From NCBI GenBank assembly GCA_031404235.1, contig JANNHF010000141.1, forward strand, positions 1 through 50,907: a stretch of 50,907 nt of DNA. Direction: 5' to 3'. The stretch comes from Chloroflexota bacterium (lineage in GTDB: Bacteria > Chloroflexota > Limnocylindria > P2-11E). Positions 3,044 through 50,466 of this stretch are shown one piece after another. Each line of letters begins with the position of its first letter. Position 1 is the first letter of the stretch. The notes beneath the pieces were generated by a model that was given only the letters and a program-made list of their open reading frames with translations, made no database searches and was not told the DNA's origin. The translations under genes were made by a program, and so were the position numbers.

Positions 3044-5458
3044 TTAGTCCGCCGGAGTTCCGGTGTTCTTGCGCTCGCGCGCGTCGGTCGACGCCGCGAG
3101 GCGGCGGACCGCTCGTCCGCGGTCGTTCTTGGGATCGCCAAGCCCGTCCGGACCGATGCGGTCCTTCGTCACGCCGCGGTTGTCGCGCTTGCCGAGCGCG
3201 TCCAGGATCTTGTCCGCGGTGATCGGGGTCTCGTCGAAGCGCACGCCGATGGCGTCATACACCGCGTTCGCGATCGCGGGGATGACCGAGTTGAGCGGTC
3301 CTTCGCCCGCCTCTTTCGCGCCGAAGGGACCTTCGCTGTCGTTCGTCTCGACGATGATGGCCTCGAGCTCGGGAGTGTCGCGTGACGTCGGCAGCTTGTA
3401 ATCGAGGAGCGACGGCTTCTTGTGCAGGCCGCCGCGGAAGATCTGCTCCTCGGCGATGATCTCGCCGTACCCCATATACGCGGAACCCTCGATCTGACCT
3501 TCGACGTTCGCGGGATTCAGCGCGCGTCCGCAGTCGTGAGCGGTCGTGATCTTGTTTACGGTGAGCGTCCCCATCTCGAGGTCGACGGACACCTCGGCCA
3601 CCGAGGCCTGGTACGAGTACGCCGGCGTGGGACCAACGCCGGCGCCTTTGTAACTCCCACCGATGCCGGCCGGCGGCTTGTAGCTTCCGGCGGCGACGAG
3701 CGTGCCGTGCTTGCCTTCGGCGAGGTTGGCCGCCTCGATGAAGGAGAGGTGCTTCTCCGGATCGCGCAGGTCGTATATGCGACCGTACGCCGTCGCGAGC
3801 CGTTCAACGCCTACGCCGAGCTTTTCCGAGGCCGCCTCGAACAGCAGCGCGCGCAGCTTCATCCCGGCTTCCTTGACCGCGTTGCCCGCCATCATCGTGA
3901 CGCGGCTGGAGTACGAGCCCAGGTCCACCGGCGCGAGCGACGTATCGCCCGAGACGACGTGCACGTCTTCGGGAAGCACGCCCAGCGTCTCCGCCGCGAC
4001 GGACGCGAGCATGTTGTCGGAGCCCTGCCCGATCTCGGCCGTGCCGCACATCACCGTCACGCCGCCGCCACGATCGATGCGGATCTCCGCGCCGGAGTGC
4101 GGCAGCGGGTTCCAGTAGATCGGGAGCCCTGCGCCCGAGATGTACGCGCTGCCGGCGACGCCGATGCCCTTTCCCTTCGGCAGGCTCTCGCGCTTCGCGT
4201 CCCAGCCGGTCGCCTGGCGCACCGCCCTCAGGCAGTCGCCCAGACCCATGGTGGTGATGCGCAGGTCGTTGACCGTGCGCGTGTTGGCCGGCTGCAGCAC
4301 GCGCAGCCGGTACTCGATGGGATCGAAGCCGAGCTCGGTCGCGATCTTGTCGAGCTGGCATTCGAATGCGTAGCGGGGCTGCGTCGTGCCGTGCCCGCGC
4401 TTTGGTCCGCATGGCGGCTTGTTCGTGTACACGCGCACGCCGTCGAACTTGTACGCGGGGATCCGGTACGTGACCGTCATGAGCGCGCCGGTGTAATAGG
4501 TGGTCGCGATGCCATACGACGCGTACGCGCCGCCGTCGAGGTAGCTCTGGAAGTGCACAGCGGTGATCTCGCCGTCCTTCTTGACCCCGGTCCGCAGGTG
4601 CATCTTCACCGGGTGGCGACCGCGGTGCGCGTAGAAGACCTCCTCGCGGTCGAGCGTGAACTTCACCGGCCGCTTCGTGCGCATCGAGAGGAGCGCCGCC
4701 GAGAACTCGTGGCCGAACGCGTCGCTCTTGCCGCCGAAGGCACCGCCGTTCGGCGTCGCGATTACGCGGATGCGTGAGCGCGGCAGCTTGAGAACCTTCT
4801 CGAGCTCGCGGTGCACGTAGTGGGGGACCTGGGTCGCGGTCCAGAGGGTGAGCTTCCCGTCGCCGTCGTATGAGGCGACGCACGAGTGCGTCTCGATGGG
4901 CGCGTGCGTGTTGCCCTCGAAGAAGGACCAGTCGTCGCGGACGAGGTCGGCGGCGGCGAATCCGGCGTCGAGATCGCCGAACGCGAGATGGACTTCCTTG
5001 AAGACGTTCGCGCGACGCGAGTCCTCGTGGATCTTGACGTCGTCCCGCTCGAGCGCGTCCTGGATGGTGAAGATCGGCTCCAGAGGCTCGTAGTCGACGT
5101 CGATCAGAGAGAGCGCCTCGAACGCGGTGTCCTCGTCGAGCGCCGCAACGGCCGCGACCGGCTCGCCGATGTAACGCACCTTGTCGACAGCCAGCGCCGT
5201 CTCGTCCTGCGTCGACGGCATGATCCCCATCTTCTCCGGCATATCCGCGCCGGTGACGATGGCGACGACGCCGGGGTGCGCGAGCGCGCGGGAGACGTCG
5301 AGACGCTTGATGCGTGCGTGAGGCTGGGTCGAACGCAGCAGGCGCCCGTACAGCATGCGCGGCAGGCGGATGTCGTCGGCGTAGAGCGCCGTCCCGGTCA
5401 GGTGCGCCCAGGCATTCACCTTCGGGAGGCGCCGGCCGACGATCGAGAATTCGCTCAT
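3044..5458 (-). CDS. hcrA: 4-hydroxybenzoyl-CoA reductase-like alpha (molybdopterin) subunit
   Basis: XDH-family large subunit: TQVPHY, GGAFGGK, RGHG, EIGQGS, YSSRVT, GAKEAGEG; ATG at 5458 behind AGGA. Confidence 0.8.
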   Translation of the reverse strand: MSEFSIVGRRLPKVNAWAHLTGTALYADDIRLPRMLYGRLLRSTQPHARIKRLDVSRALAHPGVVAIVTGADMPEKMGIMPSTQDETALAVDKVRYIGEPVAAVAALDEDTAFEALSLIDVDYEPLEPIFTIQDALERDDVKIHEDSRRANVFKEVHLAFGDLDAGFAAADLVRDDWSFFEGNTHAPIETHSCVASYDGDGKLTLWTATQVPHYVHRELEKVLKLPRSRIRVIATPNGGAFGGKSDAFGHEFSAALLSMRTKRPVKFTLDREEVFYAHRGRHPVKMHLRTGVKKDGEITAVHFQSYLDGGAYASYGIATTYYTGALMTVTYRIPAYKFDGVRVYTNKPPCGPKRGHGTTQPRYAFECQLDKIATELGFDPIEYRLRVLQPANTRTVNDLRITTMGLGDCLRAVRQATGWDAKRESLPKGKGIGVAGSAYISGAGLPIYWNPLPHSGAEIRIDRGGGVTVMCGTAEIGQGSDNMLASVAAETLGVLPEDVHVVSGDTSLAPVDLGSYSSRVTMMAGNAVKEAGMKLRALLFEAASEKLGVGVERLATAYGRIYDLRDPEKHLSFIEAANLAEGKHGTLVAAGSYKPPAGIGGSYKGAGVGPTPAYSYQASVAEVSVDLEMGTLTVNKITTAHDCGRALNPANVEGQIEGSAYMGYGEIIAEEQIFRGGLHKKPSLLDYKLPTSRDTPELEAIIVETNDSEGPFGAKEAGEGPLNSVIPAIANAVYDAIGVRFDETPITADKILDALGKRDNRGVTKDRIGPDGLGDPKNDRGRAVRRLAASTDARERKNTGTPAD

Positions 5459-5463
5459 GTCCT

Positions 5464-5544
5464 GCTCAATCTCTCGCCTTCGGCGAGGAGACACGCTCAA
5501 GGCTGGTGGACTCGCTCCTCGCGGATGAACCGCTCGTCGCTCGA
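5464..5544 (-). repeat. Structured ~81-bp repeat, copy 1
   Basis: Identical to 25448-25529 (opposite strand) except at two hairpin tips. Confidence 0.95.
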
Positions 5545-6011
5545 TCCGTTCTTGCCGCCGCCCTATCGATCGCCTCGTAGATCGAGGTGTAGCCGGTGCA
5601 GCGGCACAGATTGCCGCTGATCGCCTCCGCCATCTGCTCGCGGGTCGGACGCGGATGGGCGTCGAGCAGGGCCTTCGCCGAAAGCAGCATGCCGGGCGTG
5701 CAGTACCCGCACTGCGCGGCGCCCTCCTCGGCGAACGCCGTCTGGAGCGGATGGAGCTCCGGGCCCGTCGCGAGGCCTTCGACGGTGGTCACCTCGGCCG
5801 TGCCGATCTGCTGCGGGAGCACGAGGCAGGAGAGCACCTGCCGGCCGTCGACGAGGACCGTGCAGGCCCCACACTCGCCAAGCTCGCATCCGTGCTTCGT
5901 CCCGGTGAGGCCCAGCTCCTCGCGCAGCACCTCGAGCAGCGTGTGGTGCGGCTCCGCGGCGACGGTGTGCGCCTCACCGTTCACGTGGAGTGTGACGAGC
6001 GACTTCGTCAT
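5466..6011 (-). CDS. hcrC: 2x[2Fe-2S] small subunit; C-terminus extended by the repeat element
   Basis: GTKHGCELGECGACTV, QCGYCTPG, GNLCRCTGY. Confidence 0.85.
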   Translation of the reverse strand: MTKSLVTLHVNGEAHTVAAEPHHTLLEVLREELGLTGTKHGCELGECGACTVLVDGRQVLSCLVLPQQIGTAEVTTVEGLATGPELHPLQTAFAEEGAAQCGYCTPGMLLSAKALLDAHPRPTREQMAEAISGNLCRCTGYTSIYEAIDRAAARTDRATSGSSARSESTSLERVSSPKARD

Positions 6012-6685
6012 GCGCCCACGACCCCGTCGCGCTCGGGCGCGCCGTTGCGACGCGAGATCGCCGCGGCCGCGCTCGCGCAGCGCTCACCGATGCGGCGCAA
6101 CGTCCGAAGATCCAGACGTTCCCTGAAGCCGACCACCATGACCGCCGCGACCCGACGTCCGCGCGCATCGGTCACCGGAGCGGCGACGGCGCGCACGCCA
6201 GGGAAGAGCTCCTGATCGTCGTATCCGATCGCCTCGCGATGCGAGAGCACCTTCCCGTGCGCTCCTGCGTCGAGGGGCAGCCGCCGTCCGAGCGGCGCGC
6301 TCATGTGCAGCCCTGCCTGTGGCTCGGCGCGCGCGGCGATCTCGTGTTTGCCGTCGTGGACGATGCCGAGGATCGCGGTCTCCCCGAACGTCTCCATCAG
6401 GCTCACAAGGTGTGGCTGCGCGAGCGAGCGCAGATCGGGAGAGCTCGCATCAGCGAGCGCGCGCAGCTGCGGGCCGAGGCGGAAGCGGGTGTCGGCGTCG
6501 CGGACGACGAAGCCGTGCGCGTCGAGGGTGAGCAGGATGTCGCGCAGCGTCCCTTTGGAGACGTTGAGCGCCCGGGCGAGTTCGGAGATGCCCTGTGGCC
6601 GCTGGCCGTCCGCAAGCGCGCGCAAGACACGCGCGGTCTTCTCGACCGCCGGGACCGGCCGCAGGCCCGCCGTACTCTCCACCAT
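6008..6685 (-). CDS. IclR family transcriptional regulator
   Basis: VPAVEKTARVL N-terminal HTH, RFRLGPQL, GRRLPL..GAHGKVL, GVRAVAAPV; ATGA overlap with hcrC. Confidence 0.9.
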   Translation of the reverse strand: MVESTAGLRPVPAVEKTARVLRALADGQRPQGISELARALNVSKGTLRDILLTLDAHGFVVRDADTRFRLGPQLRALADASSPDLRSLAQPHLVSLMETFGETAILGIVHDGKHEIAARAEPQAGLHMSAPLGRRLPLDAGAHGKVLSHREAIGYDDQELFPGVRAVAAPVTDARGRRVAAVMVVGFRERLDLRTLRRIGERCASAAAAISRRNGAPERDGVVGA

Positions 6686-17820: not shown

Positions 17821-18606
17821 CTAGGGGGACGCGTCCACGTCCGTTGAGAATGCCTTCCCGTCGGCGGTGACGAAGAACGCGAGGAACTTCGCGGGCGTCG
17901 TGCCCTTGTTCCAGACCTGAAGCGCCGTGTCGGCTTGGACCATTGCTCCTTCGCCCTTCTTGAGCGTCCGCACCGCGGCGCCCTGAACACGGATGTCGAC
18001 GCTGCCGTCGAGCACGACGATCGACTCGAGCCCGCCGTGTTTGTGCGCGGCGGTCCGTCCGTTCGGCTGCACGGTCACGGCGCGCAGACCCAAGGTGTAT
18101 GCGCCGTCAGGGAGCGCGGGGAGGTCCGGCGTTGCGAACACTTCCTTCTGCCCGGGGAACGTCGGCGCCGCGGTGCGGCCCGTGTTCGGACGGATGCCGA
18201 TGAAGTACCAGAGGTTCCCCGTCGTGCCCGGATTGCTGTGCGTGTGGCCCGCGTCGGCAGGCACGAACGCGGCCTCGGTCGGCTTCATGTCTTTGGTCTC
18301 GCCGCCGACGACCGCGAGCCGGGTCGTTCCCTCGATGCCGTACACGAAGCCGGCGATGTGCGCGTGCGCGAGGACCCCCGCCGCGGGCTGGGGGATCTCG
18401 AGGTAATTGACGTACAACGTGCCCTTCGGCAGCGCGGCGATCTTGCCGTCGCCCAGACTTACGGTCACAGCGCCCTCGGCCTTCGCGGTCGCGACGGCGG
18501 CAGCGGTGCTCGTGGCTGTCGGTGTGGGCGCTGCGGTGCCGCCACCACAACCGGCGAACACGATCGTCGCTGCGGCGACAACTGCAAGGAAGGGGGCTGG
18601 TCTCAT
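17821..18606 (-). CDS. Secreted bicupin lipoprotein
   Basis: Lipobox FAGC, Thr/Ala linker, two cupin motifs (HAH...HTH; HKH..LE). Confidence 0.8.
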   Translation of the reverse strand: MRPAPFLAVVAAATIVFAGCGGGTAAPTPTATSTAAAVATAKAEGAVTVSLGDGKIAALPKGTLYVNYLEIPQPAAGVLAHAHIAGFVYGIEGTTRLAVVGGETKDMKPTEAAFVPADAGHTHSNPGTTGNLWYFIGIRPNTGRTAAPTFPGQKEVFATPDLPALPDGAYTLGLRAVTVQPNGRTAAHKHGGLESIVVLDGSVDIRVQGAAVRTLKKGEGAMVQADTALQVWNKGTTPAKFLAFFVTADGKAFSTDVDASP

Positions 18607-24215: not shown

Positions 24216-24252
24216 GCCCGCTCCGGCCGCCGGTGCCATGATGCTTCCGGTC

Positions 24253-25443
24253 ATGGATCAGCGTTTCCTCGTTGCGCTCCGCGAGCAGATCGCCTCGATC
24301 CGCGACGGCGGCCTTTACAAGACGGAGCGCGTCATCAGCTCGCCGCAGGGCGCGGAGATCGCGGTCCGGCCCGACCTCGAGGTCATCAACTTCTGCGCGA
24401 ACAACTACCTCGGGCTCTCCGACGACCCAAGGGTCCTCGCGGCCGCGCACGCCGCGCTCGACCGCTGGGGCTACGGCATGTCGTCGGTCCGCTTCATCTG
24501 CGGCACGCAGGACGTCCATAAGGAGCTCGAGGACCGGATCACGCGATTTCTCGGCACCGAGGATACGATCCTGTACGGCTCCTGCTTCGACGCGAACGGC
24601 GGTCTGTTCGAAACGCTGCTCGCGGAAGAGGATGCGGTCATCAGCGACGCGCTCAACCATGCGAGCATCATCGACGGCGTCCGTCTGTCCAAGGCGAAGC
24701 GCTTCCGTTATGCGAACAACGACATGGCCGATCTCGAGCGCCAGCTGAAGGACGCGGCCTCCTGCCGTTTCAAGCTCATCGCCACCGACGGCGTGTTCTC
24801 GATGGACGGGATCGTCGCGGACCTCGGCGCGATCTGCGCTCTCGCCGAGCGCTACACAGCGCTCGTGATGGTCGACGACTCGCATGCCGTCGGGTTCATG
24901 GGCGCGCATGGCCGCGGCTCGCACGAAGCGCGCGGGGTCGTCGGGCGCGTCGATGTGCTCACCGGCACACTCGGCAAGGCGCTTGGCGGCGCGTCCGGCG
25001 GCTACACCAGCGGCCGCAGAGAGATCGTCGAGCTGCTGCGGCAGCGCAGCCGGCCGTACCTCTTCTCCAACACGCTGGCGCCCGTCATCGCCGCCACGTC
25101 GATCGCCGTCCTCGACCTCATCGAATCCGCCGGCGACCTGCGCGAGCAGCTGTTCGCGAACGCTGCGCGCTTCCGGAGGGGCATGACTGCGAACGGCTTC
25201 CGGCTCGTCCCCGGCGAGCACCCGATCGTTCCGGTGATGCTCGGCGACGCGAAGCTCGCGACGGAGGTGGCCGACCGGCTGCTCGCCGAGGGCATCTACG
25301 TCATCGCCTTCTCGTTCCCGGTCGTGCCGAAGGGTCAGGCGCGCATCCGCGTGCAGCTCTCGGCGGCGCACACGTTCGAGCATGTCGATAGCGCGGTCGC
25401 GGCGTTCGCGAAGGTCGGTCGCGCCCTCGGTGTGATCAGATGA
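24253..25443 (+). CDS. kbl: 2-amino-3-ketobutyrate CoA ligase
   Basis: [44 protein letters not shown]. Confidence 0.96.
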
Positions 25444-25532
25444 CAGGTCGAGCGACGAGCGGCTTTGCTGCGAGGAGCGAGTCCACCAGCCTTGAGCGTG
25501 TCTCCTCGGCCGTAGCCGAGAGATTGAGCTGA
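25440..25532 (+). CDS. 30-aa repeat-derived mini-ORF bridging kbl and tdh
   Basis: [30 protein letters not shown]; ATGA overlap with kbl stop, TGATG overlap with tdh start. Confidence 0.5.
25448..25529 (+). repeat. Structured ~82-bp repeat, copy 2
   Basis: Matches the reverse complement of 5464-5544. Confidence 0.95.
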
Positions 25533-26560
25533 TGCGCGCGCTCGTCAAAAGCCGGCCCGAGCCGGGGATCTGGCTCGAGGACGTCGCTCGTCCGACGATC
25601 GGCCCGAACGATCTGCTCGTGCGGGTCCACTACACGTCGATCTGCGGGACCGACCTCCACATCTGGAACTGGGACGCCTGGGCGCAAAAGACGATCCCCG
25701 TGCCGCTCGTCATCGGCCACGAGTTCGAGGGATCGGTCGCGGAGATCGGCAGCGAGGTAAGCGGCTTCTCGACCGGCCAGCGCGTTGCCGTGGAGGGTCA
25801 CGTGACGTGCGGCCACTGCCGGAACTGCAGGGCCGGTCGCCGTCATCTCTGCCGCAACGCGGTCGGCATCGGCGTGCAGCGGCCAGGCGCGTTCGCCGAG
25901 TACGTCGCGGTGCCAGCGGCGAACGCCTACGTTCTGCCGCCGGGGATGCCCGACGAGATCGGCGCGTGCCTCGACCCACTCGGCAACGCCGTGCACAGCG
26001 CGCTGTCGTTCGAGCTCGCCGGCGAGGACGTGCTCATCACCGGCGCCGGACCGATCGGGGTCATGGCCGCGGCCGTCTGCCAGTTCGTCGGCGCGCGCTA
26101 TGTCGTCGTGACTGACCGCAACCCCTACCGCCTCGCGCTCGCACGCCGGCTGGGAGCGACGCTGGCGGTCGACTACACGGCGACGACGCTTGATGCGGTG
26201 ATGAAAGAGCTGGGGATGCTCGAGGGATTCGATGTCGGGCTCGAGATGTCCGGCAGTCCTGACGCTCTCCGTTCGATGCTCGCCTTCATGAACCACGGCG
26301 GTCGCGTCGCGTTGCTCGGCATCCCGGACAGGGAGATCCCGATCGACTGGAACCAGGTCATCTTCCGCGGACTGACGCTGAAGGGCATCTACGGGCGCGA
26401 GATGTTCGAGACGTGGTACCGCATGGGCTCGATGCTGCAGAGCGGCCTCGACATCACCGCGGTGATCACGCACCGTTTCCCAGCAAAGGAATTCGCCCAG
26501 GCGTTCGAGGTCGTGCGCTCGGGACAGTGCGGCAAGGTCGTGCTTGATTGGACCGCCTGA
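25532..26560 (+). CDS. tdh: L-threonine 3-dehydrogenase
   Basis: [19 protein letters not shown]...[20 protein letters not shown]. Confidence 0.96.
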
Positions 26561-39037: not shown

Positions 39038-39067
39038 CGGGGCCCCTTCCCCGGCCATGATGCACGC

Positions 39068-48988: not shown

Positions 48989-50466
48989 TTGTGCTGCCAG
49001 AGTCGGTACTCGTTGAACAGCGGTGGTCCTTCCTCCGGCGCGCGGACGACGCGCTCGATGTAGATCAGCTCGAACGTGTCGAGCGGCATCTGTCCGGGCT
49101 GCAGGTGCATGTTGCGCGCGCGGCAAAAGTAGCGCGCGTACTCAAGACGATAATCCCCGTATCCCGCGTTGGCGATGCGCTCATGCACTTTGACCCAGCG
49201 CGTATACAGCGGGTCACTGTATCGCTCGCTACGGTCGTCAACGGGACGATCGCTGTACAGATCGAAGGTCGTGCCGTCGGTCAGACGCGCCAGTCCGAGC
49301 AGCCAGCCATCGGTACGCGCGGGGTCGGGCGAGAACATGTCCCAGCGCTGATCGAGCGAGAGGAAGCGGACCAAGCTCGCCACGTCGCCACTGGGACGGA
49401 GCGCCTCGAACTGCCTCGGTACCGCCGTCGAGAATACGAAGAGCGCGAACACCACCAGCGCGACCGCGGCGATGCGGCGCAGCCCAGTCCGTACACGCCG
49501 CGTCACCGTTGCCGATCCGGCCGGGAGCTGCTCGGCCGCGAAGGCGACGGCGCCATCCCACCATTCGAGGAGCGGATCCGGCAGCAGCGTCCGAAGCAGG
49601 CGCGAGGTCCATCCGACGAACGCGCGGACCCACGACGGCGGGACGAAGAGCACCAGCGACGACAGCATGATCACCGGGAAGTTCCCAACGTTCATCAATA
49701 GGAGGATGCCAAGGTGGAGTCCGGCCGCGGCGACCACCGCGATGAGTCGCGTCACCGTCGATGGGATCATCGCCAGCGGAAGGAATCCCAGCTCGACCGC
49801 GAGGGTTCCCCAGCTCATTAGCTGCGCGAGCAGCGGTTGGAGCGCGACGGGTCGGGCCCACCAGCGACCGAAGGTGTGCTCGAGCTGCAGCGCGTAGTAC
49901 GCCGCGGTGCCGTTCACCCACAGGTTGCCGCCGAGCTTCTCGATCCCGGTCGCGAGATAGATCCACGCGATCTGCAGCTCGAGGATCCGAACCGGTAACG
50001 CCCAGCCTTGCCCCGTGGCGGATCGAACGCTGCGCAGAGCGTCGATCGACCAGAGGCCGCCCGCATTCGTGAACATCAACCACAGCGGCACGAAGCGGAA
50101 GACCAGGTCGCTGCCGTCGAGGATCAGCGGATTGCGCCACTGGAAGCTCACGAGGAACACGAACGCAAGAAAGCTCATCAGTCGCGTGCGCCACCCGACG
50201 GTGAGCGCGAGCGCGACCGCGCATCCGACCGCCCACAGCAGAACGATCTGCCACCACTCGCCGACGGTATTCAGCAACGAGCCGCGATCGGGGTAGAACG
50301 CGATCAGCTGGCGCCGCGGAAAGATGCCCTCATCAGTGAAGAACGCGGTCAGGTTCGGATACAGCTGCCAGTACCAGTTGAACAGCTGCAGGCCGTAAAG
50401 GATCCGAAATAGGGCGATGGGCGCGAGGTCCGTTTGTCCAAGCCAGAACGAACGAAGGGCGCCCAC
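48982..50466 (-). CDS. HTTM-domain membrane protein
   Basis: ALFRIL, FFTDEG.FPR, VGWRTR, RNPLILDG.D, LDQRWDMFSPDP; likely GTG at 50466 after CACACT. Confidence 0.85.
   Translation of the reverse strand: MGALRSFWLGQTDLAPIALFRILYGLQLFNWYWQLYPNLTAFFTDEGIFPRRQLIAFYPDRGSLLNTVGEWWQIVLLWAVGCAVALALTVGWRTRLMSFLAFVFLVSFQWRNPLILDGSDLVFRFVPLWLMFTNAGGLWSIDALRSVRSATGQGWALPVRILELQIAWIYLATGIEKLGGNLWVNGTAAYYALQLEHTFGRWWARPVALQPLLAQLMSWGTLAVELGFLPLAMIPSTVTRLIAVVAAAGLHLGILLLMNVGNFPVIMLSSLVLFVPPSWVRAFVGWTSRLLRTLLPDPLLEWWDGAVAFAAEQLPAGSATVTRRVRTGLRRIAAVALVVFALFVFSTAVPRQFEALRPSGDVASLVRFLSLDQRWDMFSPDPARTDGWLLGLARLTDGTTFDLYSDRPVDDRSERYSDPLYTRWVKVHERIANAGYGDYRLEYARYFCRARNMHLQPGQMPLDTFELIYIERVVRAPEEGPPLFNEYRLWQHKC

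Follow-up and report, generated by a model that had tools for sequence, protein, structure and literature searches.

In the window, i.e., the whole stretch of 50,907 nt analyzed here, two copies of a short structured repeat are located between neighboring genes of two operons. Copy 1 (5459..5546, minus strand, 88 nt, full length) was matched by the covariance model R1 with 104 bits (E 1.2e-24) and copy 2 (25446..25534, plus strand, 89 nt) with 89.6 bits (E 9e-21). Copy 1 is preceded by the gene of a small subunit with Fer2 and Fer2_2 domains and followed by that of a large subunit with Ald_Xan_dh_C and MoCoBD domains. Copy 2 is located between the genes encoding glycine C-acetyltransferase (Kbl) and L-threonine 3-dehydrogenase (Tdh). 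As stated in the preliminary description of this DNA, each copy lies in the sense direction of its own operon, although the two copies are opposite to each other.

In copy 1, the 5' domain (element positions 4-39; 5508..5543, minus strand; pairs counted on 103 copies of the family) forms a long, irregular helix with the order C.G, tandem GA, GC/GC, tandem GA, C.G, tandem GA and GCGG-loop-CCGC. An unpaired linker, TCCACCAGCC (5501..5510, minus strand), is conserved in 75-102 of the 103 copies in most columns of alignment A3, and the 3' hairpin GC-G-UCUC-C-UCGCC / GAA / GGCGA-GAGA-U-GC (5467..5495, minus strand) has the apex C-GAA-G. The 5' domain helix of copy 2 is found at 25449..25484 and the core of its 3' hairpin, with the apex CUCGGC-CGUA-GCCGAG, at 25500..25524 (both plus strand). 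The copies share an exact core of 39 nt that occurs twice in the window (5484-5522, minus strand; 25470-25508, plus strand), and none of 100 shuffled sequences contained even one match to it. The stretches earlier named as differing, TTCATCC versus CTTTGCT and CCGAAGG versus GCCGTAGC, were recovered, and pairing is preserved at both tips (GCGG/CCGC versus GCGGC/GCUGC; CUCGCC/GGCGAG versus CUCGGC/GCCGAG), the tip differences lying on truly covarying pairs of the family alignment; with two copies alone, compensation could not have been told apart from simple variation of the loops. That the copies differ in their hairpin tips only is correct within the span first described; outside of it element position 2 and the last bases (GAGCAGGAC versus GAGCTGATG) differ as well. 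Neither copy is an assembly artefact, since the same element is present at the same junction in a second genome of the genus (for copy 1 this is G010, for copy 2 G001). A metagenome contig is continuous across copy 1, with 9 letters different.

The small-subunit ORF (5466-6011, minus strand) passes through copy 1 and ends at a TGA in the element tail (GATTGAGC; 5466..5468, minus strand), which serves as its stop codon. Of the 181 residues, the Fer2_2 domain extends to residue 148, all NCBIfam profiles of the small subunit end at residues 150-157 and insert-free orthologues terminate at the equivalent of residue 155; thus, the roughly 26 residues of the tail (156-181) are encoded by the element. 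The proposal that copy 1 supplies the stop codon and about 26 C-terminal residues is thereby borne out, and the comparison with orthologues identifies the tail as an addition. Of the further claim that copy 1 is fused into HcrC, the fusion to a 2Fe-2S small subunit stands and the label HcrC is only approximate: the best NCBIfam model for the large subunit is 4-hydroxybenzoyl-CoA reductase alpha with 873.5 bits, below the cut-off of 994.55, and the top-scoring model for the small subunit is pucE with 186 bits at a cut-off of 254.3. The ATG of the molybdopterin large subunit (5456..5458, minus strand) is immediately 3' of copy 1; the distance from the end of the copy to this ATG (5458), initially given as a few nucleotides, is 0 nt by the covariance-model boundary and 5 nt by the boundary used before. 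The in-frame fusion is due to the 5' stop codon built into the element, which has been lost in copy 1: a T-to-C change at this TGA allows the small-subunit frame to continue through the element. The frame then ends at another TGA located 10 nt from the ATG of the large subunit, which would restore the tight spacing of termination and reinitiation at the cost of a tail of 26 residues. At the second junction, the tdh ATG (25532) forms the final three bases of copy 2, and a bridging mini-ORF of 30 codons (25440..25532, plus strand) overlaps the kbl stop codon with its ATG (ATGA) and the tdh start codon with its TGA (TGATG).

Extent of the family and its sense-strand fold

This metagenome-assembled genome (MAG) contains about 12 recognizable copies, nine of them full and the others partial, as found by nhmmer and covariance-model searches. 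Element lengths range from 85 to 91 nt with a consensus of 88 nt, and tandem arrays with periods of 84 and 69 occur. Covariance-model matches were obtained in 23 of 24 other genomes of the genus (1-41 per genome) and, in the order sample, in 87 of 91 other genomes of the GTDB family of this MAG, a family of uncultured Chloroflexota from soil, covering nine of nine genera. Neither of two genomes of the sister family (at E<=1e-6) and none of 14 genomes of the rest of the class had a covariance-model match, and the copy number across genomes varies from 0 to >40. The order-wide search resulted in 150 matches plus 742 more, i.e., about 900 variants, and strict filters undercount. When 185,579 species genomes were scanned for an exact pattern, 71 stretches were identified, all except three in MAGs titled Chloroflexi, Chloroflexota or Limnocylindria, and viral contigs gave 0 matches to the core pattern. 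The loose motif GAGATYRRGC was abandoned as a finder, as its 191 genome hits mostly encode E-I-E, and was replaced by profile and covariance-model searches.

For Rfam 15, the gathering scan of the whole window gave 0 hits with no family at the gathering threshold, and permissive scans around both copies returned just osmY (E 1.6) and P26 (E 5.5), which are at chance level and far under gathering. Literature searches, judged by title and the start of the abstract, returned no paper on the repeat. The repeat family of Limnocylindria is new; the type of element, MIRU-like, is already known.

On the sense strand, a long helix containing three tandem G.A motifs is formed along with a hairpin that has a C-GNA-G cap; CCACCAGCC is conserved and stays unpaired. 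Covariation in the larger alignment of 103 copies is strong: 93.6% of the cells are paired, whereas shuffled alignments reach 83.1% and slid partners 28-43%, and double-sided changes were found in 21 of 24 proposed pairs (235 cells), which was reached by none of 500 shuffles. One pair that was absent from the model used for making the alignment is CG in 44, UA in 38, UG in 16, GC in 1 and other in 4 copies (n=103). The base pairs are kept by compensatory substitutions beyond the controls. A conserved G.U, present in 92 of 103 copies, makes the fold specific for the sense strand together with the tandem G.A motifs. At its apex, the 3' hairpin shows C-GNA-G in 79 and GCGNAGC in 46 of the 103 copies. 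RNA minimum free energies are unremarkable, with z-scores of -1.0 and -0.96 for the sense and +0.53 and -0.99 for the antisense strand; in such GC-rich sequence these values are uninformative. As an Rfam match, missing covariation and an assembly artefact are all ruled out, the original inference of selection on structure in a new family holds, with two restrictions: the repeat is dispersed and embedded in operons instead of being a stand-alone ncRNA gene, and it is not a REP in the strict REP/RAYT sense.

Two extensions of this fold were discarded. An outer helix CYUG...CAGG suggested by RNAalifold is doubtful, with 78% of the cells paired and one pair classified as other in 47 of 103 copies. 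Mimicry of a tRNA acceptor, i.e., a helix followed by ACCA, is not supported: no covariation is seen between columns 1-2 and columns 73-74 (G.C accounts for 48 and 34 of 103 copies, with nearly invariant partner columns), so that ACCA is not adjacent to the end of a helix. In a search for an RNA partner of the conserved linker, no candidate emerged, as its complement GGCTGGTGG has 48 occurrences scattered through the genome. The 3' hairpin and tail also persist alone next to start codons, with the 5' part lost, at nuoJ|K|L and on C143 of this MAG. As a separate observation, a second element of 42 nt was located precisely inside the loops of hairpins of the repeat and of other hairpins, in either orientation; this nested 42-mer contains GCGAAGC.

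The C-GNA-G/GCGNAGC apex and Y-GA-R tandem mismatches are best known as stabilizers of single-stranded DNA, and these motifs would fit a role at the DNA level at least as well as one at the RNA level. GCGNAGC is named as the consensus of an "extraordinarily stable mini-hairpin DNA" where the motif is introduced in the literature (PMC13037366; PMC3201870). The likeness of such mini-hairpins and d(GNA) triloops to the repeat is that of the apex motif in the 3' hairpin; however, this literature deals with the physical chemistry of DNA oligomers and no link to the repeat family is implied.

Placement and polymorphism at gene junctions

The repeat is fitted closely between genes. The stop codon of an upstream same-strand ORF is found at most 16 nt before the element in 49 of 70 copies and within its first 10 nt in 12 of 70, while the upstream ORF reads through the element in 5 of 70. 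Downstream, the first start of a same-strand ORF is located at -6 to +10 relative to the element end in 63 of 94 copies, and many of these start codons are confirmed by the beginnings of Pfam domains. After collapsing to 74 loci, 52 lie between co-directional genes (44 in sense and 8 in antisense orientation); a further 12 are divergent and 4 convergent. Contig strand gave no signal for orientation, nor did GC skew, with a test of low power on 16 copies (element-strand skew positive in 9 and negative in 7, |skew| <= 0.017). The host operons include genes for S19, L24, S8, L6, SecY, Adk, RpoC, IF-2, EF-P and NuoK and also rpoB-rpoC. A relay from stop to start via mini-ORFs was found in 36 of 54 sense intercistronic copies, with complete read-through in two more; the background of this test is high, as phase-shifted controls gave 16-23 of 48, and the copies are not independent. 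The bridging ORFs use all three frames (22/21/12). RNA contigs obtained from four weakly matching runs include none over 5459-5546.

Comparison of orthologous junctions revealed that the repeat is polymorphic in presence and absence, as expected of a MIRU-like repeat. At the copy-1 junction, two of 21 genomes are filled, one is mosaic, two carry a different hairpin insert, four have 16-33 extra nt and 12 are empty; the empty junctions show an ATGA or GTGA overlap, one of them in an unpublished genome. At the copy-2 junction, likewise compared in 21 genomes, two are filled and in 13 the stop codon abuts or overlaps the start codon. In three genera, nuoJ|nuoK is filled in 5 and nuoK|nuoL in 4 of 27 loci. 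For the copy-2 site one ancestral insertion is enough, as G000 and G001 are sisters (SH-aLRT 84). Independent gain at the copy-1 site was considered and is not proven: G000 and G010 are non-sisters in the best tree, but this tree is poorly resolved and its supported branches do not require more than one change.

In 15 pairs of orthologous copies, the stems differ by 12.0% and the G.A columns by 10.6%, compared to 31.6% at third codon positions of the flanking genes; hence, stems evolve slower than synonymous sites. Of 46 changed pairs, 31 are still paired in both copies, 20 of them via a double change. The loops and the first three columns are 52-62% different, i.e., above the level of synonymous sites, suggesting that some copies scored as orthologous may be replacements or conversions.

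The search for a mobilizing gene was negative for the families considered. The Y1_Tnp domain (PF01797) was sought in 26 genomes of the genus and detected in 0 of them, the same search being positive in 6 of 14 control genomes, and TnpB, the IS110 DEDD domain and the reverse transcriptase RVT_1 were each absent from the one genome searched, this MAG of 88.8% completeness. Insertion sequence copies are often missing from MAGs, so that absence is not a proof. The element has no terminal inverted repeat, with 3 of 20 terminal bases complementary and 5 at best when shifts are allowed, and inspection by eye of two comparisons of filled and empty junctions showed no target-site duplication. As neither a mobilizing gene nor these hallmarks were seen, it is from the distribution that we infer mobility, which would probably depend on machinery acting in trans.

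Relation to known elements and interpretation

The well-known small interspersed repeats come from a few cultured groups: the enterobacterial REPs, the mycobacterial MIRUs, the Neisseria Correia elements and the Rickettsia RPEs. To our knowledge, such repeats are almost unexplored in uncultured phyla, and we know of no covariation evidence for MIRU comparable to that presented here. The general accounts of MIRU in two papers describe sequences of 40-100 bp between the genes of operons, in sense orientation and inserted at start codons, with small ORFs overlapping the flanking stop and start codons, tens of copies per genome that are sometimes in tandem, and a transposase given there as unknown (PMC12548453; PMC3184786). 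The repeat resembles MIRU in its junction position, sense bias, ATGA and TGATG overlaps, tandem arrays and the failure to find a transposase; it is inserted at start codons and its internal ORFs overlap the neighboring genes, though their frames are not uniform. It differs from MIRU, which was compared by description, in unrelated sequence and phylum, in its two covarying hairpin domains, the tandem G.A motifs and the GNA-capped hairpin, and in having bridging frames of several phases.

The resemblance to REPs and BIMEs is more general, as these are likewise short, GC-rich, hairpin-forming, transcribed, intergenic and modular and often lie between the genes of operons. As summarized in one report, a REP is an imperfect palindrome of 20-40 nt with a GTAG or CGTC tag and was reported to stabilize upstream mRNA (PMC3733652), a function also covered in the references of PMC3184786. 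REPs occur in both orientations and together with a RAYT gene, whereas the repeat is 88 nt long, consists of two unlike domains and is biased for sense. An identity as REP/RAYT element was rejected on the basis of Y1 in 0 of 26 genomes, the length of 88 nt, the absence of a GTAG or CGTC tag from the 88-nt consensus and the strong orientation bias. An IS200/IS605-derived palindrome-associated identity was not supported either (Y1 0/26; TnpB 0/1; opposite window copies; no skew signal), orientation in this MAG being judged from contig strand and GC skew in place of the direction of replication. MITEs such as Correia, ERIC and RUP originate from an insertion sequence and carry terminal inverted repeats as well as target-site duplications. 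They share with the repeat that they are non-autonomous, about 100 bp long, dispersed and co-transcribed with their neighbors, whereas the repeat has no terminal inverted repeat (3/20) and no visible target-site duplication at two sites. Finally, copy 1, which extends an enzyme subunit by 26 residues, resembles the Rickettsia palindromic elements and similar in-frame repeats; in the repeat, however, in-frame fusion is exceptional (5 of 70 copies).

Taken together, we favor, with a probability of about 0.6, the reading that the repeat is a lineage-specific, MIRU-like, junction-targeting mobile family under structural constraint that is transcribed within operons. It would be non-autonomous and would have repeatedly entered tight stop-start junctions, almost always in sense orientation. 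It appears to be built for tolerance at such junctions: its 5' end often carries or abuts the upstream stop codon (the TGA of NTGAGCGA), its 3' end (GAGAUYGAGCAGG) comes to lie within about 10 nt of the downstream start codon, and it is devoid of a terminator-like U-run. Due to its sense position between co-directional genes the repeat is proposed to be part of the operon mRNA, in which the sense strand may fold as two domains, the helix and the C-GNA-G hairpin, both kept by compensatory change. As the stop codon upstream and the start codon downstream are often connected by open frames that run through the repeat, translational coupling could persist, and the bridging frames probably matter in this respect. 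The orientation bias presumably reflects a requirement at the level of mRNA or translation.

Part of this evidence would also be expected if the repeat were a host-selected cis-acting RNA module, i.e., an operon "punctuation" for which spread is secondary and which might stabilize the mRNA against exonucleases, be the site of processing by an endonuclease or serve as an insulator or standby platform immediately 5' of the ribosome-binding site. The sense bias of 44:8 loci, the fold on the sense strand only with its conserved G.U and G.A, the about 2.6-fold slower evolution of stems and G.A columns at orthologous loci relative to third codon positions, the numerous compensatory double changes, the presence in essential operons, the 3' hairpin and tail persisting alone by start codons and the consensus preserved over nine genera point in this direction. 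However, most relatives lack the element at the same junctions, genomes carry anywhere between 0 and >40 copies, the downstream genes have no common function, antisense copies are intact at eight loci, constraint in situ could be imitated by gene conversion between copies and no RNA contig covers copy 1 in four runs. Such a module, which is compatible with the MIRU-like reading, is therefore regarded as possible though unlikely. Quite unlikely is also that the repeat is a new kind of module of operon junctions instead of a passive repeat, in which the helix of three tandem G.A motifs and the invariant CCACCAGCC linker are read by a dedicated protein or RNase of the lineage to punctuate or insulate polycistronic mRNAs, with transposase-independent spread to stop-start junctions or spread by an undescribed mechanism.

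That the hairpins are single-stranded DNA signals of transposition, used by a REP/RAYT-like, an IS200/IS605-derived or another single-stranded DNA enzyme, with the RNA features as by-products, is considered improbable. The two subterminal hairpins in an element with no terminal inverted repeat and no visible target-site duplication at two junctions, the strand-specific fold, the apex motifs (C-GNA-G in 79/103, GCGNAGC in 46/103) and the 42-nt element inside hairpin loops, as expected if loops are exposed targets, would agree with it; yet Y1_Tnp is missing in all 26 genus genomes (controls 6/14) and TnpB was not found in this MAG, orientation tracks local transcription rather than a contig-wide strand, and the length is 88 instead of 20-40 nt with neither a GTAG nor a CGTC tag. 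An independently transcribed small RNA gene in many copies is very improbable: the structure is conserved and covarying and the 12 loci in divergent intergenic regions could have a promoter, but most copies fill a co-directional gap with 0-16 nt on either side, leaving no room for a promoter or terminator, no U-run follows the second hairpin and there is no Rfam relative. Hardly credible, and already largely refuted by the distribution of frames, is a conserved peptide encoded by the repeat as a mini-gene or protein module. Many copies contain a through-going open frame of about 30 codons and copy 1 is translated as a protein tail; however, bridging frames occur in all three phases (22/21/12), element lengths vary between 85 and 91 nt instead of following multiples of three, and the copies vary by compensatory changes of nucleotides, not by synonymous ones.

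For practical purposes, the MIRU-like family has consequences for the genomes that carry it. MAG assemblies are broken by the repeat, as many copies are found at contig ends, and gene calls obtain spurious C-terminal extensions such as that of copy 1. Moreover, the roughly 900 natural variants are a resource on two folds that are unusual, one made of stacked tandem G.A motifs and the other a hairpin with a GNA cap, for which covariation is clear. If the reading with a dedicated protein or RNase were true, the 42-nt element would be a mini-mobile element targeting hairpin loops that is unprecedented at such a size. The MIRU-like landing on stop-start junctions, even in ribosomal-protein and rpoB-rpoC operons, raises testable questions of tolerance and placement, namely how an additional 88 bases of structured sequence can be tolerated between genes that are coupled in translation, and which machinery places the repeat there although no transposase is visible.

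Two copies of a hairpin-forming repeat and their host genes

A 39-nt core occurs exactly twice in the window, at 5484–5522 on the minus strand and at 25470–25508 on the plus strand, and matches were found in none of 100 dinucleotide-preserving shuffles of the window. The boundaries of the 88-nt element, 5459–5546 (−) for copy 1 and 25446–25534 (+) for copy 2, were set by a covariance model, each copy being read on its own strand. In this comparison both copies differ, within the span considered by the preliminary description, only at the two stretches named there, and pairing is preserved at both; the exact core, the own-strand copies and the pairing confirm the structured repeat that had been reported. 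A weak covariance model match at 49820–49910 (+; E 0.074, 19 bits) and, at 858–875, 18 nt identical to a portion of the copy-1 5′ helix may be remnants of decayed copies or chance similarity in coding sequence rich in GAGCGA.

Copy 1 lies between the gene of a Fer2/Fer2_2 small subunit of 181 aa (5466–6011, −) and that of an Ald_Xan_dh_C/MoCoBD large subunit of 804 aa (−, ATG at 5458). Residue 148 is the last of the Fer2_2 domain, the NCBIfam small-subunit profiles all end at 150–157, and the reading frame crosses copy 1 and terminates at the TGA at 5466–5468; therefore the proposal that approximately 26 C-terminal residues are supplied by the repeat is correct. The name HcrC given to this protein holds only approximately, as the best model of the large subunit, 4-hydroxybenzoyl-CoA reductase alpha, stays below its cut-off (873.5 bits, cut-off 994.55) and the small subunit obtains its highest NCBIfam score with pucE. 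An IclR-family regulator gene (HTH_IclR and IclR_C; 6008–6685, −) ends at the small-subunit gene start with an ATGA-type overlap at 6008–6011, placing a regulator in the operon of the Mo-hydroxylase subunits, and an FAD-binding middle subunit is absent between the small and large subunit genes. Copy 2 is located between kbl (glycine C-acetyltransferase, 24238–25443) and tdh (L-threonine 3-dehydrogenase, 25532–26560), both of which score above the NCBIfam cut-off.

Fold and phylogenetic range of the element

Two hairpin domains were first proposed by RNAalifold from nine seed copies, and base pairs were counted in 103 copies from 100 loci in an alignment fitted to the model. Paired cells amount to 93.5%, compared to 83.3% in shuffles and 30–39% with slid partners; both-sided changes occur at 20 of 23 pairs (196 cells), and none of 500 shuffles reached any of these measures. 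Because the alignment was fitted to the model, an extra pair outside it is most telling, namely between column 4 (Y of NYGAGCGA) and the R of GCGA-R-U (C·G 44, U·A 38, U·G 16, G·C 1, other 4; n = 103), with which double-sided change is seen at 21 of 24 pairs. The 5′ helix consists of Y·R, tandem G·A/A·G, GC/GC, tandem G·A/A·G, an S·S pair (GC 53, CG 36), tandem G·A/A·G and GCGGC-loop-GCCGC. Its G·A columns are nearly invariant (G·A or A·G in 74–97 of 103 copies) and are swapped for G-C/C-G on both strands in a few copies (5 and 4). A conserved, unpaired linker, (U)CCACCAGCC, leads to the 3′ hairpin, which has a bulged lower stem with a G·U kept in 92/103 copies, a freely covarying upper stem (e.g., UA 56, GC 25, CG 13, AU 4) and the apex C-GNA-G in 79/103 copies (GCGNAGC in 46/103), followed by the tail GAGAUYGAGCAGG.

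The fold belongs to the sense strand, as G·U and G·A would become C·A and pyrimidine mismatches on the opposite strand. Tandem G·A in Y-GA-R contexts is a stabilising motif in RNA and DNA alike. GCGNAGC is given as the consensus of "mini-hairpin DNA" in PMC13037366; since these motifs suit both nucleic acids, the fold may matter as RNA or as single-stranded DNA, and the sequence fits either. The MFE z-scores of both window copies are unremarkable; the structural evidence is covariation, not MFE. Together with the lack of a matching family in Rfam 15, this covariation supports and sharpens the earlier suggestion of structural selection on a new family.

The source MAG (2.65 Mb, 272 contigs, 88.8% complete) was searched by BLAST, nhmmer and the covariance model R1, which was built from its nine full copies. 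It contains in addition three weaker or truncated copies (contigs C242, C77 and C118) and one copy of the 5′ domain only (C7). Among 24 further genomes of the genus, 23 have R1 matches (1–41 per genome); in an order-wide sample, so do 87 of 91 other genomes and 9/9 genera of the GTDB family. The sister family had none at E ≤ 1e-6 in the two genomes sampled, and 14 genomes from other families of the class, drawn separately from the order-wide sample, had none either. The genus tally includes the unpublished genome G022 and the order-wide tally also G053, G063, G065, G086 and G087; the conclusions do not depend on these. An exact scan for a 22-nt core pattern in one genome for each of 185,579 species resulted in 71 stretches. 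With three exceptions, they come from MAGs whose titles read Chloroflexi, Chloroflexota or Candidatus Limnocylindria. The exceptions are one Bathyarchaeia, one Saccharimonadales and one "uncultured bacterium" contig. The first two (L190 and L210) come from a soil MAG series that also supplied many of the Limnocylindria matches, and they are probably binning carry-over. Viral contigs gave no match. Among the papers listed for Limnocylindria repeats and Chloroflexi REPs, none describes this family in its title or abstract opening.

Position, occupancy and translation at gene junctions

The flanks of 121 copies were classed by codon-position GC, and copies sharing flanks were merged to 74 loci: 44 in sense and 8 in antisense orientation between co-directional genes, 12 divergent, 4 convergent and 6 unclear. 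The element occupies the whole junction. Where an upstream ORF runs on the same strand (70 copies), 49 stops precede the element by ≤16 nt, 12 fall within its first 10 nt, with the TGA of NTGAGCGA used in nine cases, 4 lie further into it and 5 coincide with its 3′ end or lie past it. A same-strand ORF follows 94 copies, and its first in-frame start, counted from the element end, is at −6 to 0 in 22, at +1 to +10 in 41, at +11 to +20 in 11 and at +21 to +45 in 8, with none in 12; Pfam models begin at residues 1–6 in many of 52 downstream products, which supports the start calls. The downstream genes are varied housekeeping genes, encoding by Pfam NuoK, ClpB, ribosomal S19, L24, S8 and L6, SecY, adenylate kinase, RpoC, IF-2, EF-P, enolase, TsaD, GcvP and others. 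Orientation tracks local transcription rather than the chromosome-wide strand: the window copies, 20 kb apart, lie on opposite strands and are both sense to their local genes, the element strand has GC skews of mixed sign, all within ±0.017, and sense copies also occur on contigs with balanced coding strands. Copies before two unrelated genes (loci L005/L022 and L014/L023/L024) share about 15 further bases past the model end, GGTAACGAA-[G/A]TGATCG, with the start codon and two codons of the gene included. The shared bases would be either donor flank that moved with the element or a target similar in sequence to the element end.

Orthologous junctions are occupied in a patchy manner. At the copy-1 junction, compared in 21 genomes of the genus including the source MAG, the element is present in the source MAG and G010 with the same subtype and read-through tail. 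In G013 the 5′ domain is fused to unrelated sequence, in G018 (L050) and G020 (L055) the insert is a different one, 71 nt long and with a GGGGC...GCCCC hairpin (GCAGGGGCGGAGCCCCTGC), and four genomes have 16–33 extra nt; as a hot spot, this junction has received several small inserts. It is empty in twelve genomes (the unpublished G022 among them), with the stop of the small-subunit gene overlapping the start of the large-subunit gene (ATGA/GTGA), and a metagenome contig across the site, carrying 9 other letters in place of the element, represents an empty-site relative. Across 21 genomes with adjacent kbl and tdh, the copy-2 junction is filled in the source MAG and G001 only; stop and start abut or overlap in 13, and a spacer of 8–34 nt is present in five and of 259 nt in G023. 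The source MAG and G001 are sisters in the flank tree (SH-aLRT 84), so a single insertion is enough at this site; for copy 1, the best tree does not pair the source MAG with G010, but supported branches force no second gain. The 28-nt kbl|tdh spacer of G013 (L240, GCGTCGCAGCCGAGAGCTTGACCGTTCC), a genome of a different clade, looks by eye like a decayed 3′ hairpin arm and tail, which hints at an older or second insertion. Across genera, 27 nuoK loci include 5 with the element at nuoJ|nuoK and 4 with it at nuoK|nuoL. The element has no terminal inverted repeat (3/20 bases), and no target-site duplication was seen at the copy-1 and copy-2 junctions. The 3′ hairpin and its GAGAUYGAGCAGG tail also stand alone three times in the source MAG (C99:18000–18035 and 18364–18401, L013; C143:31965–32001, L014), directly before nuoK, nuoL and a ClpB-like gene. 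The full element is found at nuoJ|nuoK in other genomes, and the lone copies look like 5′-deleted remnants retaining the start-proximal part.

By hand count of about 80 copies, the downstream start is overlapped by a stop as [A/G]TGA in ~37 and in TGATG-type form in ~12, as would follow from insertion into junctions that already overlapped. The 54 sense intercistronic copies for which a start was called were checked for a relay, defined as one or two mini-ORFs joining the upstream stop to the downstream start with a reinitiation window of −4 to +10 nt; 36 have one, 16 lack it and 2 are instead read through completely. The 36 include copy 1 and its orthologue in G010, in both of which the upstream gene itself reaches to ≤10 nt from the start. 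With a 1- or 2-nt phase shift introduced in the linker, the relay was kept in 16–23 of 48, an enrichment that is suggestive rather than strong, coming from non-independent copies. The bridging frames span all three phases (22/21/12) and element lengths are not multiples of three; therefore no conserved peptide is encoded. In copy 2, an ATG overlaps the kbl TGA (ATGA) and opens 30 codons ending at a TGA that overlaps the tdh ATG (TGATG). In copy 1, the built-in TGA reads CGA, with G instead of A as its partner on the other arm, and the small-subunit frame continues for 25 codons until the TGA in GAUUGAGC, which leaves 10 nt to the ATG of the large subunit.

A nested companion element and the nature of the family

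About one fifth of the copies, seemingly a 5′ variant, are normal copies with a second element of ~42 nt placed precisely in the 5′-helix loop, in forward orientation (L003, L007, L079, L091 and others); their true left arm lies ~40 nt upstream and still obeys covariation. The 42-mer, TCAGGGGGAGGGGCCCCTGT(T)CAGCGAGCGAAGCGAGCGTG and variants, comprises a GGGGnAGGGGCCCC hairpin followed by ...GCGAGCGAAGCGAGCGTG, and is found reversed in the 3′-hairpin loop of four long copies (L139, L140, L142 and L148). Several orthologous loci have the plain form in one genome and the nested form in another, thus nesting was gained, or lost, in place. The source MAG has the 42-mer at seven other places, one of them near 39052 (−) in the window, and in at least three (C12, C143 and C175, by eye) it lies inside the loop of another hairpin; the 42-mer thus appears to be a separate mini-element that targets loops. 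Furthermore, the 88-nt family forms exact tandem arrays, at L166:1383–1550 with a period of 84 nt and at L177:990–1130 (−) with a period of 69 nt, both multiples of three and head-to-tail duplications, and other adjacent pairs are spaced 83–122 nt in G002, G055 and G096.

The best-supported account, to which we assign a probability of about 0.6, is that of a MIRU-like mobile intercistronic repeat. A non-autonomous element would enter stop-start junctions in a single orientation, would be carried within operon transcripts and would be maintained in foldable form. Tandem duplication amounts to VNTR-like behaviour, as MIRUs show. The parallel is based on passages from two reviews, in one of which (PMC3184786) the size of MIRUs, their ORFs overlapping adjacent genes and also repeats extending the 3′ ends of genes are described.

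Constraint after insertion is visible in the element. In 15 pairs of same-locus copies from different genomes, flanking genes diverge by 10.7%, 7.6% and 31.6% at codon positions 1, 2 and 3, and the element by 12.0% in stem columns, 10.6% in G·A columns, 17.2% in the linker, 27.5% in the tail, 51.8% in loops and 61.5% in the first three columns. The stems (12.0% versus 31.6% at third positions) are therefore conserved well below the synonymous rate; of 46 changed base pairs, 31 are paired in both copies (20 via double change) and 15 are broken in one. Such conservation may reflect host-level selection or concerted evolution among copies, and some "orthologous" copies may be replacements or conversions, given the hypervariable loops and head. 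As main rivals, an mRNA module selected by the host appears rather unlikely, and a transposon system acting on single-stranded DNA hairpins, with which the GCGNAGC apex would agree, is less probable still. The search for a mobilising gene gave no candidate: Y1_Tnp (PF01797) was found in 0/26 genomes of the genus, with 6/14 control genomes matched by the same search, and the one source MAG gave no match to TnpB, an IS110-type DEDD transposase or reverse transcriptase. The absence of a mobiliser is fairly strong for Y1 and weak for the single-genome searches, because MAGs lose repeated genes.

As a summary, the MIRU-like element represents a new family of a known kind, the small interspersed intercistronic repeats, distinguished by unusually clear covariation, an unusual G·A-rich helix, a junction-targeting habit and a companion 42-mer that inserts into loops.
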